From an uncultured virus (IMG/VR IMGVR_UViG_3300034073_003023) (lineage: Duplodnaviria; Heunggongvirae; Uroviricota; Caudoviricetes): 20,000 nucleotides of DNA. Where the stretch lies: IMG/VR virus record IMGVR_UViG_3300034073_003023. One strand, given 5' to 3'. A program made the translations under genes and the position numbers. Shown piece after piece: positions 11,160 through 20,000 of the stretch; within the stretch, counting starts at the first letter, position 1, and each line of letters opens with the position of its first letter. The notes under the pieces were generated by a model. The model made no database searches. It was not told the DNA's origin and saw only the letters and a program-made list of their open reading frames with translations.

Positions 11160-11188
11160 AGGTCTGCTCCTTTACTTGTGGGTATAGG

Positions 11189-11251
11189 TGCGTTCCTTCG
11201 GTTTCCCTACTTCCGTCTCTATTTGCTATTTGCAAATAGCAGATGAACGAT
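11189..11251 (-). ncRNA. Glutamine riboswitch class I (glnA RNA motif)
   Basis: AUCGUUC-[P2]-GACGGAAGUA-GG-GAAA-CC-GAAG-GAACGC: P1 CGUUC/GAACG, E-loop AGUA/GAA, P3 with a GAAA loop, P2 CUAUUUGC/GCAAAUAG. Confidence 0.9.
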
Positions 11252-11310: not shown

Positions 11311-11637
11311 TTATCTTTCAATATAACTCAGGGTATGGTTCTGAGCATAGAGTTGTTCGATGATAATGTCACATCCAATCTTAGGGTTACAATCACCGCA
11401 AGTATAGACATCACACGCAGCCTTACCTTCTTCCGGCCAAGTATGAATACTAATATGACTTTCTGAGAGTAAGCACAATACCGTAACTCCTTGCGGGTCA
11501 AACTTTTTGTATACTGTTTCACACACAGTTGCCCCACTAGCAGACGCAGCGTTTTCTAGTAGGTCAATAAGAAAATGCTCATCGTTCAGGAGAACGAATG
11601 AGCATCCATACAAGTTAAGTAAGTAGTGCTTTCCCAT
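11311..11637 (-). CDS. speD: S-adenosylmethionine decarboxylase proenzyme (pyruvoyl-dependent)
   Basis: MGKHYLLNLYGC...FDPQGVT...LSESHISIHTWPE...DVYTCG; contains the ESH self-cleavage site. Confidence 0.93.
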   Translation of the reverse strand: MGKHYLLNLYGCSFVLLNDEHFLIDLLENAASASGATVCETVYKKFDPQGVTVLCLLSESHISIHTWPEEGKAACDVYTCGDCNPKIGCDIIIEQLYAQNHTLSYIER

Positions 11638-13893: not shown

Positions 13894-14265
13894 TTAATAA
13901 TTTATATTTTTTCTTGGACGATAAACATAGTACTCATTGTCATTTATTTGTTTCTGCCATTCAATAATAGCAGATAATTTTTCGGTTGTAAAGAAAGGTT
14001 GTTTCATATACCAATCATACCAAATTTGCTGACCTTTTGAGTGATTGCATTCATTGCAAGCACACAATACATTTGTTACTCGATCACTTCCTCCCTTAGA
14101 TCTAGGGGTAATATGATCTAATGTTAGATTTTCGTCATTTCCACAATATGCACATTGATTATTCCATTTTTCTTTAATTGATTGTCTCCATTTTCGTTTT
14201 GCCTCAGAACTTGATGTAGCTTCTAAATTAAACAACAAATCTTGAGAACTTTGATACAGAGGCAT
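13894..14265 (-). CDS. HNH endonuclease (McrA-like)
   Basis: CAYCG...LTLDHITPRSKGGSD...NVLCACNECNHSKG; CTAAATA at 14287-14293. Confidence 0.9.
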   Translation of the reverse strand: MPLYQSSQDLLFNLEATSSSEAKRKWRQSIKEKWNNQCAYCGNDENLTLDHITPRSKGGSDRVTNVLCACNECNHSKGQQIWYDWYMKQPFFTTEKLSAIIEWQKQINDNEYYVYRPRKNINY

Positions 14266-14979: not shown

Positions 14980-16341
14980 TCAACCAGCATCATCATAGGA
15001 AAAATCATCATCATAACCAATTCCGTATTCAGGAATTTCTGAGAAGTCCATCATTAATTCTTGAGGGATTTCATCAAACACTACATCATCATCAAAGTTA
15101 TAAATGTCTAAGGTGGGAATTTCATCCATAGGATTTTCTTCTAAAAATCTACTCACAAGCTCATCATAATTTCCAGATGGAGTTTCATCATTTTCACCGT
15201 TGTTATTAGGTCCTGAACCACCTGGAGCATCGTCATCTCCATTTCCCCATCCATTATCTCTTTGTGAGTTTTGTCCCTGACCTCTTCCATTACCACTATC
15301 ATTTTCATCATCAGAATTTTGGTTTCCGTTAGCATTTGATGGTCCATTTCCTTTAAATCCTGGTTGCTCTCCTTCATCATCTTCACCACCTTCCATAGGT
15401 CCAGAACCAGGAGTTTTATCTCCATTATTTCCAGAATTTCCAGTAATACCATCAAAAGGTGAATTTCCTACATCCTTATTGTTTCCTGGATTTTGACCTG
15501 ATGGTTCCTCTGGTTCAGGAGGCTCAGGAGGATTAGGAGGTTCTGGTTCTTCAGGTTCCTCAGGGTCTTCAGGGTCTTCTGGTTCAGGAGGAGCAGGAGG
15601 TTCTGGTTCTTCAGGGTCTTCTGGTTCAGGAGGATTAGGAGGTTCTGGTTCTTCAGGTTCCTCTGGTTCTTCTGGGTCTTCTGGTTCAGGAGGAGCAGGA
15701 GGTTCTGGTTCTTCAGGTTCCTCAGGGTCTTCTGGGACTTCAGGCTCTGGTTCATCAGGAGTAGGAGGTTCCACAGGTGGTTCCTCTGGGACTTCTGGGA
15801 CTTCTGGTTCTGGAGGAGCAGGAGGTTCTGGTTCCTCAGGAGTAGTAGGTTCTACAGGTGGTTCTACTGGTGGAGCAGGGGAAGTTGGTGCTGGTTCTTC
15901 AGGAACTTCATCTACAACTTCTCCATTCGGTGTCTCACTATCCACAGGATTATTGTCATTATTATCAGGAATAATACCAGCACCAAGATTAGGTATAGTT
16001 TGAATCCTAACATTTGGAGTTTCTGCTAGTGGAATTAATTCTAGTCCTTGAGGATTATCTTCTACACCTTCTTCCTCAGGAGCAATTAAAAAATCCCCAG
16101 TTCCACCATAAGTTTCAAGAGGTAAATCTGAAACTTGTCTGGTAGGAACTGGAGAAGTTGCGGAAACTTCACCAATATTATTAGGATTAACTTCTAGTGT
16201 AGGTGTATTATCTTCAGCACTTCCCACAGGAGTATAACCATCAGGATTTCGTAGTGCTGCGTTTGGGTCGTGCTCTACGGCATCTTGTGATTGTAGAACA
16301 TTCTTTTGCGTTTCTTCAAGAAATAGATTTTCTTCCATCAT
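14980..16341 (-). CDS. Highly acidic Pro/Glu-repeat protein with a Gly/Asn-rich C-terminal module
   Basis: 453-aa ORF; SD GGAG; ATAAATA at 16369-16375; (PEE/PED/PEPP[A/N]PP)n repeats. Confidence 0.8.
   Translation of the reverse strand: MMEENLFLEETQKNVLQSQDAVEHDPNAALRNPDGYTPVGSAEDNTPTLEVNPNNIGEVSATSPVPTRQVSDLPLETYGGTGDFLIAPEEEGVEDNPQGLELIPLAETPNVRIQTIPNLGAGIIPDNNDNNPVDSETPNGEVVDEVPEEPAPTSPAPPVEPPVEPTTPEEPEPPAPPEPEVPEVPEEPPVEPPTPDEPEPEVPEDPEEPEEPEPPAPPEPEDPEEPEEPEEPEPPNPPEPEDPEEPEPPAPPEPEDPEDPEEPEEPEPPNPPEPPEPEEPSGQNPGNNKDVGNSPFDGITGNSGNNGDKTPGSGPMEGGEDDEGEQPGFKGNGPSNANGNQNSDDENDSGNGRGQGQNSQRDNGWGNGDDDAPGGSGPNNNGENDETPSGNYDELVSRFLEENPMDEIPTLDIYNFDDDVVFDEIPQELMMDFSEIPEYGIGYDDDFSYDDAG
15502..15905 (-). 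repeat. In-frame degenerate tandem repeats
   Basis: Recurring 9-nt blocks (CCTGAAGAA, CCAGAAGAC) and repeated CCAGAACCTCCT[GC/AA]TCCTCCTGAACCAGAAGAC units. Confidence 0.9.
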
Positions 16342-17351: not shown

Positions 17352-17441
17352 CTAATCATCCGTCTGTTTTGGTTTTCCGTAATTAAGACCCAACCAAATA
17401 AGATAAATGCCCATCAGAGAGTTAATCCAATCAATTTCCAT
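17352..17441 (-). CDS. Small hydrophobic peptide (29 aa)
   Basis: MEIDWINSLMGIYLIWLGLNYGKPKQTDD*; starts 1 nt after the upstream stop. Confidence 0.55.
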   Translation of the reverse strand: MEIDWINSLMGIYLIWLGLNYGKPKQTDD

Positions 17442-17442
17442 T

Positions 17443-17676
17443 TCAGAACCCTTTTGCTTTTTTCTTTGGTTGTTTCTTATCTAGCACTTCAACATAGTCT
17501 AGAAATTGTTTTGGTGTTTGAAACCAAGTCCTTTGAATGTCTTCAAAGTTATCAAACACTTCTGGTTTCTTAGTCGTATAATGAAGTTTATAATCGTGAC
17601 GAACATAGGGTTCATCAGAGGTTTGTGCGAATGTTTCGGGAAGCACTCGTTCTTCTGGGTCAAGTTTTCCAACCAT
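17443..17676 (-). CDS. Conserved cyanophage hypothetical protein (77 aa)
   Basis: FAQTSDEPYVRHDYKL...WFQTP..FLDYVEVLD...KGF. The ORF-track TTG start at 17730 is the -35 of the promoter, so ATG 17676 is preferred. Confidence 0.8.
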   Translation of the reverse strand: MVGKLDPEERVLPETFAQTSDEPYVRHDYKLHYTTKKPEVFDNFEDIQRTWFQTPKQFLDYVEVLDKKQPKKKAKGF

Positions 17677-17701
17677 CTTTGAAGTCTGCGGAGGGGTTCT
17701 T

Positions 17702-17730
17702 ATTATAGCAGGAAAGGGGTTAGAAGTCAA
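17702..17730 (-). promoter_or_regulatory. Strong sigma70 promoter
   Basis: TTGACT-N17-TATAAT with TGn. Confidence 0.85.
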
Positions 17731-17788
17731 GAGACAGAAGAAAGAGAATTATACCGAAACCTATGAAGAATGCGAGAGTGATAAACAT
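17720..17788 (-). CDS. Putative 22-aa single-TM peptide
   Basis: MFITLAFFIGFGIILFLLSLDF*; overlaps the last codons of the endonuclease gene. Confidence 0.45.
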   Translation of the reverse strand: MFITLAFFIGFGIILFLLSLDF

Positions 17789-18333
17789 TTGAGATTTTCT
17801 ACTAATGTTTGGAGTTCTTGTAGGGATGCGTCGTTTTTTAATTTATTTGCCCTCAAAGACACTACCCATATATTTCCCCTAACATATCCAAGTTCTGGAA
17901 TAATTTTATCAAGGGAAGGATTGTTTGGTGAAGTTTTATCAGTATTACTTTCTAGTTTTATACCAAGTAGAGGGCAAGTTTCTGGAATAACAATATCACT
18001 CAATTCAATATTGAATGGTAAATTATTTTTCTTTGCTCTATGTCTTGCCCTTGCTAACATCTTATATTCAACTGACTTTGATACTGCGTTAGGGTCAAAT
18101 CTTTTTTTATTAGTTTCAATAGACCTTTCAGTTCTAAAACAACCGCAAGATTGTACTTTACCAGAAACTATTTCGTGCCTTCTGGTCTTTGTAGTTTTTC
18201 CTCCACAAGAACAAGAACATTCACAGAGAACATATTTTTTACAAGGAGACCTATATTCTCTTTCTATAGTAAGACGACCAAAAGTTTTTCCTACCATTCC
18301 TCCACAAGGAACCGATTTTTTATTAAGAGGCAT
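17761..18333 (-). mobile_element. Free-standing putative homing endonuclease (HNH/His-Me-like) gene
   Basis: N-terminal GKTFGRLT...CECSCSCG...SGKVQSCGC Cys module plus a C-terminal CPLLG...PSLDKIIPELGYVRGNIWVVSLRANKLK nuclease-like module; has its own promoters; adjacent to psbD. Confidence 0.8.
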
Positions 18334-18354
18334 ACTCGTTTAATACTCCATTAT

Positions 18355-18390
18355 TATTTATATAATACCATTTTCTGGGTCATAAGTCAA
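18355..18390 (-). promoter_or_regulatory. Overlapping sigma70 and late promoters for the endonuclease
   Basis: TTGACT (18385-18390)-N17-TATTAT (18362-18367) and TATAAATA (18355-18362). Confidence 0.75.
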
Positions 18391-18391
18391 T

Positions 18392-18413
18392 AAAAAAGAC
18401 CCCGAAGGGTCTT
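18392..18413 (-). terminator. psbD terminator
   Basis: AAGACC-CTTCGG-GGTCTT followed by TTTT (cUUCGg tetraloop). Confidence 0.92.
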
Positions 18414-18418
18414 GTGTA

Positions 18419-19480
18419 TCAAAGAGCATTACCTCTCGGCAATACTTCTTCTGGAAATACAAAGTTTTCGTGTGGTTGGTCAATTGGTGCTAACCAGGCA
18501 CGTAATCCTTCATTCAAAAGCTGGTTTTTAAGATAGAACGTCTCAAATTCTGGATTGCTTGCTGCTTCAATCTCCTGACTTACAAAATCATAAGCCCTCA
18601 AATTCAAAGCCAATCCGATAATCCCAATAGAAGAAGTCCAAAGACCCATAACGGGAACAAATAACATAAAAAAGTGAAGCCAACGCTTATTGCTAAAAGC
18701 GATACCAAAGATTTGTGACCAGTAGCGGTTTGCTGTAACCATAGAGTAAGTTTCTTCCTCTTGTGTTGGTTCAAATGCCTTGAAGGTGTTTGCTTTTTCA
18801 CCGTCTTCGTAAAGGGTATTTTCAACTGTCGCACCGTGAATAGCACATAGTAGGGCACCTCCTAGAATACCTGCCACCCCCATCATATGGAAGGGGTTGA
18901 GAGTCCAGTTGTGGAAACCCTGAAGGAACAGAAGGAACCTGAAGATTGCTGCCACACCAAAGGATGGAGCAAAGAACCAACTGGATTGACCCAGAGGATA
19001 CATCAGGAATACTGAAACAAATACTGCGATGGGTCCAGAGAATGCGATTGCGTTATAAGGACGAATGCCTACAAGACGGGCAATCTCAAACTGACGGAGC
19101 ATAAAACCGATTAGAGCGAAAGCCCCGTGGAGTGCCACAAAAGTCCAGAGTCCCCCAAGTTGGACCCACCTGACGAAATCCCCTTGAGCCTCAGGACCCC
19201 AGAGAAGCAGAAGAGAATGACCCATAGCATCAGCAGGGGTACTTACCGCAGATGTTAAGAAATTGCAGCCTTCCAAATAACTGGAAGCAATACCGTGTGT
19301 GTACCAACTCGTCGCAAATGTAGTGCCCGTTAACCAACCACCAAGAGCAAGGTATGCTGTTGGAAACAGCAATAAACCACTCCATCCAACGAACACAAAC
19401 CTATCCCTTTTCAACCAATCGTCCAATAAATCAAACCAACCTTTCTGTTGATTTGGAACTGAAATCGTAGATGAAACCAT
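18419..19480 (-). CDS. psbD: Photosystem II D2 protein (353 aa)
   Basis: [22 protein letters not shown]...FHMMGVAG...[17 protein letters not shown] before ATG 19480. The ORF-track TTG start is the -35. Confidence 0.99.
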
Positions 19481-19503
19481 CAATCCTCCATTAAGATTTG
19501 TAA

Positions 19504-19537
19504 TATTTATGTTAGCATTTCTTAACAGAAAGGTCAA
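19504..19537 (-). promoter_or_regulatory. psbD dual promoter
   Basis: TTGACC-N17-TAACAT (with TGn) overlapping the late promoter ATAAATA at 19504-19510. Confidence 0.75.
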
Positions 19538-19569
19538 TGAGTATTAGTGCTCATCTTATTAAAGGGCAT

Positions 19570-19596
19570 AAAAAAAGAGACCCTTTCGGGTCTCTC
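19570..19596 (-). terminator. psbA terminator
   Basis: AGAGACCC-GAAA-GGGTCTCT followed by a T-tract. Confidence 0.92.
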
Positions 19597-19615
19597 AAAA
19601 ACTATTGAGTTTTTA

Positions 19616-20000
<385 letters not shown>

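Follow-up and report, generated by a model that had tools for sequence, protein, structure and literature searches.

Why should a cyanophage carry five substitutions within sixteen residues of a photosystem protein, in a segment that is otherwise nearly invariant? The question is raised by the window analysed here, a stretch of 20,000 nucleotides (nt) from an uncultured virus (IMG/VR record IMGVR_UViG_3300034073_003023), which is part of a T4-like cyanophage and whose psbD gene (18419–19480, minus strand) encodes an altered D2 protein of photosystem II (PSII). The original prediction, made from this DNA, had offered two explanations: either the donor side of PSII, or its interface with PsbO, is tuned by the phage, or the changes are the protein cost of escaping cleavage by a neighbouring endonuclease. 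Our analysis indicates that the five substitutions probably reflect a recoded psbD 3' end that is linked to a free-standing cassette resembling a homing endonuclease and encoding a putative nuclease, the tail of the gene having been co-converted together with it.

The substitutions themselves are real. The D2 protein (353 residues from MVSST; stop codon at 18419–18421) matches Pfam PF00124 (E 6.7e-73) and 43 distinct PDB D2 sequences at E ≤1e-100, the best at 2e-215 over residues 9–353; an alternative, longer open reading frame (ORF) with a TTG start occupies 18419–19537. Residues 11–353 align to residues 10–352 of full-length, 352-residue PDB D2 chains, so that residue n of the window corresponds to residue n-1 in Thermosynechococcus and the numbering R304E, E307S, D308N, T316L and I/L319Q, used from here on unless window positions are specified, is confirmed. 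The 25-residue peptide that contains the patch ([25 protein letters not shown]) is encoded by the minus strand at 18506–18580, and the patch itself (18521–18568, minus strand) spans 16 codons, from GAA for E304 (18566–18568) to CAG for Q319 (18521–18523), reading EAASN at 304–308 and LKNQ at 316–319 with PEFETFY in between. Four of the five substitutions need two or three base changes within the codon, and the reading frame of psbD is intact across the patch. Parts of the stretch are contained in 20 public runs from 11 studies. In run X4, whose study differs from that of the three best-holding runs, a contig of 223 nt with a depth of about 249 covers 18388–18595 with three differences, and the sole listed difference within the patch (18521 C>T, CAG to CAA) is synonymous. 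Since the same patch is thus present in an independent contig of another study, and a second contig family is changed at the same five positions, a sequencing or assembly artefact is exceedingly improbable, even if the contigs of run X1 are fragmented and leave 18468–18531 uncovered. Coverage by runs X7 and X8 is likewise partial, and nothing is concluded from these gaps.

The segment is near-invariant, as had been claimed. Our baseline consisted of the 120 D2 proteins listed among 502 matches in a database of 5.8 billion proteins. In this set R304 is found in 116 proteins (the remainder being 2 Q and 2 K) and E307 in 114, and D308, T316, E312 and K317 are each present in all 120. Position 319 is variable (I in 101, N in 12, Q in 3, V in 2 and L in 2), so that Q319, taken by itself, has been seen before as a minor variant and is not unusual. 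D308N, T316L and the charge reversal R304E are absent from these proteins; all changes but Q319 are very rare or unseen, and the complete patch occurs in none of the 120. The rest of D2 is conventional, again in agreement with the original prediction: against 117 D2 sequences taken as background (the 63 non-carriers described below plus 54 full-length proteins from databases, with locus L045 left out), the body of the window protein contains a single unseen residue among 290, and the tail contains 6 among 63 (window positions 305, 308, 309, 317, 320 and 333).

The patch is equally scarce in environmental sequences. Its exact back-translated pattern with S307 matched no stretch in viral contigs. 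A looser pattern, in which position 307 was left free and 311 could be F or Y, retrieved one record (L133) among 241 million JGI metagenome records. This record spans the corresponding region of a contig equal in length (27,704 bases) to the one other IMG/VR contig (L024/L043/L046/L055) in which the full patch is found, in the form E..VN.Y..L..Q ([16 protein letters not shown]). Beyond the window, the allele count therefore amounts to this one contig in IMG/VR and JGI together. The two halves of the patch also exist on their own: the first (E304/V307/N308/Y311) in five IMG/VR contigs (L047–L051), collapsed to one as duplicates, and the second (L316/Q319) in L025/L044 and L042. Neither half was found in 185,579 prokaryote species genomes (one for each species) by patterns that fix the flanking residues, so that variants with other flanks would escape. 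Codon 316 forms a series of its own, with T316S in eight loci (five of them unique) and T316L in four lineages. In every contig with the full patch or with either half (L024, L047–L051, L025 and L042), a nuclease-like ORF lies downstream of psbD.

In the window, this ORF (17761–18333, minus strand) encodes 190 residues and starts 85 nt past the psbD stop codon, as a separate gene and with no intron. Relatives are encoded in 41 IMG/VR loci, in 30 of them at an identity of at least 60%, and psbD lies directly upstream in 29 of these 30, the thirtieth (L001) beginning at a contig end. The cultured phage S-SKS1 carries a 78% identical ORF at the same place behind psbD. The gene that follows the ORF varies between phages, which leaves psbD and the ORF as the conserved unit. 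The DUF7441 gene found next in the window, which was considered as a fixed right flank, does not belong to the unit, as it follows in only 2 of 29 carriers and in 10 of 64 non-carriers.

These carriers and non-carriers were drawn from 121 pooled loci with a psbD 3' end (94 after duplicate removal), with 80 taken of the at least 602 psbD 3' ends matched in IMG/VR. Loci were considered carriers when a relative of the ORF (tblastn E ≤1e-5) starts on the same strand within 600 nt of the psbD end, and at least 700 nt of downstream sequence was demanded of non-carriers; L128 was dropped because it has too little. Presence of the ORF is sporadic, with 29 carriers, including the window and S-SKS1, and 64 non-carriers among the 94 unique psbD ends.

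The tails of the two groups differ markedly. With respect to the 117-sequence background, never-seen residues in carriers occupy 72 of 1827 positions in the tail and 9 of 6249 in the body, as compared with singleton residues at 5 of 3969 and 7 of 18264 positions, respectively, in non-carriers. At least one novel tail residue is present in 25 of the 29 carriers versus 5 of the 64 non-carriers (Fisher p = 8e-14, relatedness ignored), so that altered tails do co-occur with the downstream endonuclease-like ORF; the original prediction had proposed such a test for the patch. Measured against the nearest non-carrier, 90 of 1071 tail residues and 136 of 4539 body residues are different in the 17 full-length carriers, as are 58 of 3969 and 364 of 16821, respectively, in the 63 non-carriers. 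There are 28 distinct tail proteins in the 29 carriers and 16 in the 63 non-carriers, and synonymous codon differences in carriers reach 52.5% in the tail versus 29.1% in the body. The hot spots of change are residues 304, 307–311, 313, 316, 319 and 330–342. E312 and K317, whose conservation in the window had been pointed out, are invariant together with N318 in all 93 loci (29 carriers and 64 non-carriers), and non-carriers with D2 bodies about as similar to that of the window retain the canonical tail.

The limits of the altered region can be drawn by comparing the window with a near-twin, L093, in bins of 30 nt. Identity is mostly 97–100% at 18651–19220, in psbD, and 93–100% (with one bin at 67%) at 17361–17810, a region that comprises the final ~50 nt of the ORF together with the DUF7441 gene (17443–17730, minus strand; PF24225, E 1.9e-22), which is the right flank here and whose protein is 89% identical to its L093 homologue. 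Inside 17811–18650 (minus strand), most bins are only 33–80% identical. This block, which takes in the final ~230 nt of psbD, the intervening spacer and nearly the whole nuclease-like ORF, diverges between near-identical flanks and thus leaves a footprint consistent with the co-conversion of a cassette. The tail of L093 is itself altered, but in another way, with Y307, S309 and Q319 among its changes, and the ORFs of L093 and the window share 56% identity. Within the block, a terminator-like hairpin right after the psbD stop (18396–18413, minus strand; consensus scan and sequence inspection) falls in an island with 29 of 30 positions identical to L093. We also screened for pairs of loci with at least 93% identity in the 210 nt preceding the tail; among the 26 pairs obtained (an earlier cut-off of at least 96% had given one), carriers are involved in both of the two steepest drops in tail identity.

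Several related loci show further rearrangements around these genes. Compared with the window, L093 contains ~258 extra bases inside psbA (opposite 19671–19700) and ~590 between psbA and psbD (opposite 19551–19580), and in L003 (1947–2206) the D1 match is likewise interrupted by ~260 bases; these extra segments might correspond to an intron of psbA and to a further inserted gene. In L057 (2035–2556; IMG/VR 3300042343_000514), an ORF distantly related to that of the window (38% identity) begins 26 nt behind the psbD stop codon; its C-terminal end, ...[10 protein letters not shown], repeats the final ten residues of D2, which looks as if the cassette had been inserted inside the end of psbD and had brought a replacement copy with it. 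The ORF of the window is also a mosaic (17811–18333, minus strand): its 3' two-thirds are 97–100% identical in DNA to L001, and for parts of its Cys-rich 5' third the nearest sequences are those of L024 and L025, contigs that share L316/Q319.

What the ORF does can be approached through its family and its predicted fold. Its strongest matches in PHROG are phrog_3322, labelled 'endonuclease' (5.4e-33), and phrog_1035, 'endonuclease VII' (7.7e-20), and it also matches a family labelled HNH endonuclease, these names being those of the families only. An AlphaFold2 (AF2) model based on 39 relatives (predicted local distance difference test, pLDDT, 83.8) consists of a small, Cys-rich N-terminal beta domain and a C-terminal domain of HNH-like character (residues ~80–185). 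The best fold match of the latter is PacI (Z 6.9, root-mean-square deviation (rmsd) 5.3, 102 residues aligned), followed by the Gme HNH domain (Z 4.5, rmsd 4.2, 76 aligned) and SaCas9 (Z 4.5, rmsd 3.8, 81 aligned); HNH domains other than PacI score at Z 3.5–4.5. All these scores, that of PacI included, are of a size at which a common arrangement alone may be shared. Nine residues (C120, P121, D142, G149, Y150, N154, S159, A162 and N163) are invariant in the 39 aligned members of the family.

All together, these observations allow us to propose how the altered tail may have arisen. During mixed infection, the predicted nuclease would cut the conserved psbD 3' end of phages devoid of the element, and the break would be repaired from the carrier genome, so that the nuclease gene and the flanking psbD tail are copied across; the base changes in the carrier tail would keep the carrier itself uncut. 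Free-standing endonucleases of T4-type phages cut a conserved gene at least hundreds of base pairs from their own gene, with co-conversion of the flanking DNA, as described in PMC2988022, and the pattern seen at psbD matches this behaviour. Because several variants of nuclease and tail would circulate and recombine, the tail would become a mosaic of small variant patches, and the window would combine two of them, R304E/E307x/D308N and T316L/I319Q, both of which exist separately elsewhere. Throughout these exchanges the proton-gate residue E312 and the chloride ligand K317, whose roles are given in the available text of PMC12661325 and PMC10684718, would stay untouched.

The changed residues appear to be affordable for PSII, since mutants of D2-E307 and D308, like those of E310 and E323, leave the Fourier transform infrared (FTIR) difference spectra unaltered according to the part of bioRxiv 10.1101/2021.01.29.428861 available to us. 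The same source places D308 at the surface end of the broad (Cl-1) channel, which is lined by T316 and N318, and R304 is named in the accessible portion of PMC12445680 only within a list of charged groups. Taken by themselves, the channel positions of T316 and D308, the charge reversal at R304 and the recurrence of the patch in two or three lineages might suggest an adaptive tuning of the donor side, by which the exit of the broad channel or a contact with an extrinsic protein would be altered to suit infected cells. We consider this improbable. The 29 carriers have arrived at 28 different tails with no convergent motif, non-carriers with similarly close D2 bodies keep the canonical tail, the divergence begins and ends with the cassette, and the E307 and D308 mutants just mentioned are those with unchanged spectra. 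The first of the two explanations in the original prediction, by which the phage tunes the donor side or the PsbO interface, is therefore not supported, and the original interpretation holds in part only. The second explanation, the cost of endonuclease escape, fits the observations: altered tails and relatives of the ORF occur together, no part of D2 other than the end next to the ORF shows the changes, and tail and ORF behave as one block. The canonical HNH histidine, however, is missing from the ORF.

The latter point is one of several that weigh against a recoded tail linked to a nuclease cassette. In the canonical HNH motif, D-H...N...N/H, the catalytic histidine directly follows the metal-binding aspartate. 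No histidine is invariant or near-invariant among the 39 family members, and in the window D142 is followed by lysine; the ORF is therefore termed HNH-like rather than a canonical HNH enzyme. It has no match in Pfam or among PDB sequences at E up to 10, nothing above chance level (E 0.25) was obtained from NCBIfam, and the fold matches are modest (PacI, at Z 6.9, is also the best in Foldseek, with E 0.1). Other objections concern the association. Four of the 29 carriers (L007, L009, L057 and L117) have no novel tail residue, two of which, L057 and L117, carry distant relatives of the ORF (38–44% identity) only 24–26 nt past the psbD stop. Conversely, L045 (IMG/VR 3300042987_001876, 1–1100) has a tail with 12 never-seen residues, including E304/R307/N308, but no such ORF downstream. 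Its altered tail reads [30 protein letters not shown]... and is followed only by a hairpin and a small ORF; L045 may be a resistant site that remained after loss of the element, which is a guess. The non-carrier set is rather uniform, with its 16 distinct tails in 63 loci, and the association ignores phylogeny. The patch does not follow the ORF clade: it is common to the window and L024, whose ORFs have only 63% identity. The Mantel correlation of ORF and tail distances is weak, both in the 29 carriers (r 0.15, p 0.057) and in the 17 full-length carriers (r 0.07, p 0.29); r is 0.26 (p 0.0002) for the C-terminal domain and the patch region, and -0.03 for ORF and body. A strict co-inheritance of ORF and tail is therefore not claimed. 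Furthermore, synonymous changes could protect the site at no cost to the protein, and the proposed mechanism alone does not explain why residues have changed.

Two other readings were weighed. If the ORF were an HNH-derived DNA-binding or regulatory protein of the Srd or sigma-decoy kind, as the absence of the histidine and of a Pfam match would permit and as weaker PHROG matches might suggest ('Srd anti-sigma factor', 1.2e-07; 'decoy of host sigma70', 0.0029), the variation of the tail would have another cause, for instance a recombination hot spot at the psbD terminator. This has little probability, as the strongest family matches bear the label endonuclease, the best fold matches are the PacI, Gme HNH and Cas9 HNH domains, the presence or absence of the gene at one fixed site beside one conserved gene, with any gene following, is the habit of a homing element, and the psbD end is repeated at the terminus of the distant relative in L057. 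A nuclease cassette might, on the other hand, have carried its tail along with no protective effect, the tail being a co-conversion tract whose odd residues are neutral or mildly harmful and spread by linkage to a driving gene. Such hitch-hiking would agree with the inclusion of the tail in the exchanged block, with the raised level of synonymous tail differences in carriers, as expected of an older imported tract, and with the loose tie between type of patch and ORF variant. An imported tract needs a source, however, and its residues are absent from the 120 listed D2 proteins and its half patches from the 185,579 species genomes; in addition, the repeated multi-base changes at the same codons (304, 307–311, 316 and 319) look like selection for change. 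We regard hitch-hiking as rather unlikely. Targeted hypermutation by a retroelement was also considered and set aside, no reverse transcriptase match being present among the 24 window ORFs scanned against PHROG.

The reading in which a recoded tail is linked to a nuclease cassette can be taken one step further, in a form that we put forward only tentatively. The variants of the nuclease and its homing site in psbD might be engaged in an arms race, in which case the D2 tail would be a natural mutational scan, with at least 28 tails, each presumably part of a PSII that still works in infected cells; the window would stack two independent resistance patches, and the nuclease would work in the absence of the HNH histidine.

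Systems of a comparable organization are known. In T4-type phages, free-standing nuclease genes are paired with conserved genes, as for SegF and gene 56, SegG and gene 32, and MobE and nrdB. The psbD locus shares with them a distance of ~190–240 nt between the nuclease gene and its presumed target. Further points in common with this intronless homing, as covered by the available part of PMC2988022, are a free-standing nuclease gene beside a conserved gene, its presence or absence among relatives and the exchange of flanking coding sequence. In the present case, by contrast, the target would be a photosystem gene, the nuclease belongs to another family that does not have the canonical histidine, and the linked changes hit near-invariant residues; the system is known here from sequence alone. 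A second parallel is F-CphI of cyanophage S-PM2, which is annotated as a free-standing selfish endonuclease gene in the psbA-psbD region of a T4-like cyanophage. F-CphI is reportedly a free-standing homing endonuclease next to psbA, in work of Zeng et al. (2009) that is cited in PMC3037559 and PMC2984593. F-CphI differs from the present cassette in lying after psbA and in sharing no sequence similarity with the 190-residue ORF (BLASTP E 1.4), and the D2 tail of S-PM2 is canonical. The insertion site of a psbA intron is reported to be the target of F-CphI, whose carrier would be protected by that intron; the cassette of the window has no intron, its presumed protection being recoding. In fungal mitochondria, mobile endonuclease ORFs come with a copy of the terminal part of the gene into which they insert, a likeness to the cassette with a replacement gene end in L057; in the window, in contrast, no leftover stump of psbD is seen, and only 30 nt separate the nuclease-like ORF from the next gene. 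With regard to the protein, the C-terminal domain has its best, if modestly scoring, fold matches in PacI, Gme HNH and Cas9 HNH, and departs from canonical beta-beta-alpha-metal nucleases in having neither the invariant histidine nor a Pfam HNH family match. The psbD cassette would thus resemble intronless homing of the SegF, SegG and MobE type in the way it works, in a setting like that of F-CphI, and would belong to neither protein family. In the portions of the literature available to us on psbD with homing or HNH endonucleases, cyanophages and recombination, no endonuclease linked to changes in the psbD tail was found.

The remainder of the window is that of a T4-like cyanophage with a G+C content of 34%. 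PHROG matches include a gp32-type single-stranded DNA-binding protein, a helicase loader, late-transcription factors, baseplate and tail-tube proteins, PhoH, ThyX and SpeD. At its right end, the minus-strand order is the 3' part of psbA, psbD, the 190-residue ORF and the DUF7441 gene, and the closest cultured phages have only ~80% DNA identity across psbA-psbD. The psbA part (D1; 19616–19999, minus strand) is an open-ended ORF at the window end, and in related loci tblastn finds D1 C-termini 94–97% identical to it upstream of psbD. A sigma-70-like promoter (TTGACT, 17 nt, TATTAT, with TG) is predicted before the nuclease-like ORF at 18362–18390 (minus strand) by consensus scan only. An Rfam scan of the whole window found no RNA family within 17400–20000; it did detect a glutamine riboswitch aptamer (RF01739, 51.9 bits against a gathering score of 35) at 11187–11251 (minus strand), located downstream of a SpeD-like gene (11311–11637) on the same strand. 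A second free-standing HNH endonuclease ORF, of 123 residues (13894–14265, minus strand; phrog_2214, E 5.7e-35), lies among small phage genes away from psbD, and a 453-residue ORF (14980–16341, minus strand) with a long central Pro/Glu repeat (PEPEEPEEP...) has no match in Pfam or PHROG. Another contig of run X4, with a depth of about 430, joins window 17734 to 19573 and skips both psbD and the ORF; as only 20 letters lie on the shorter side of the joint, it may derive from another phage, and it was set aside.

If the cassette model is right, a selfish DNA element, and not a photosynthetic need, rewrites the most conserved part of a photosynthesis protein in abundant aquatic viruses, and caution would be required before variation in phage psbD is taken as adaptation; were the arms-race form of it to hold, the element would drive the protein evolution of a core photosystem subunit. 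The family could also supply site-specific enzymes with an unusual active site. The main value of the locus lies in a testable predicted nuclease, in the clear example of block exchange that the window offers, and in a natural catalogue of tolerated D2 tail variants: with E304, S/V/Y/R307, N308, S310, W/Y311, N313, S/L316, Q319 and others accepted, and E312, K317 and N318 fixed, this set maps the donor-side residues that PSII can spare.

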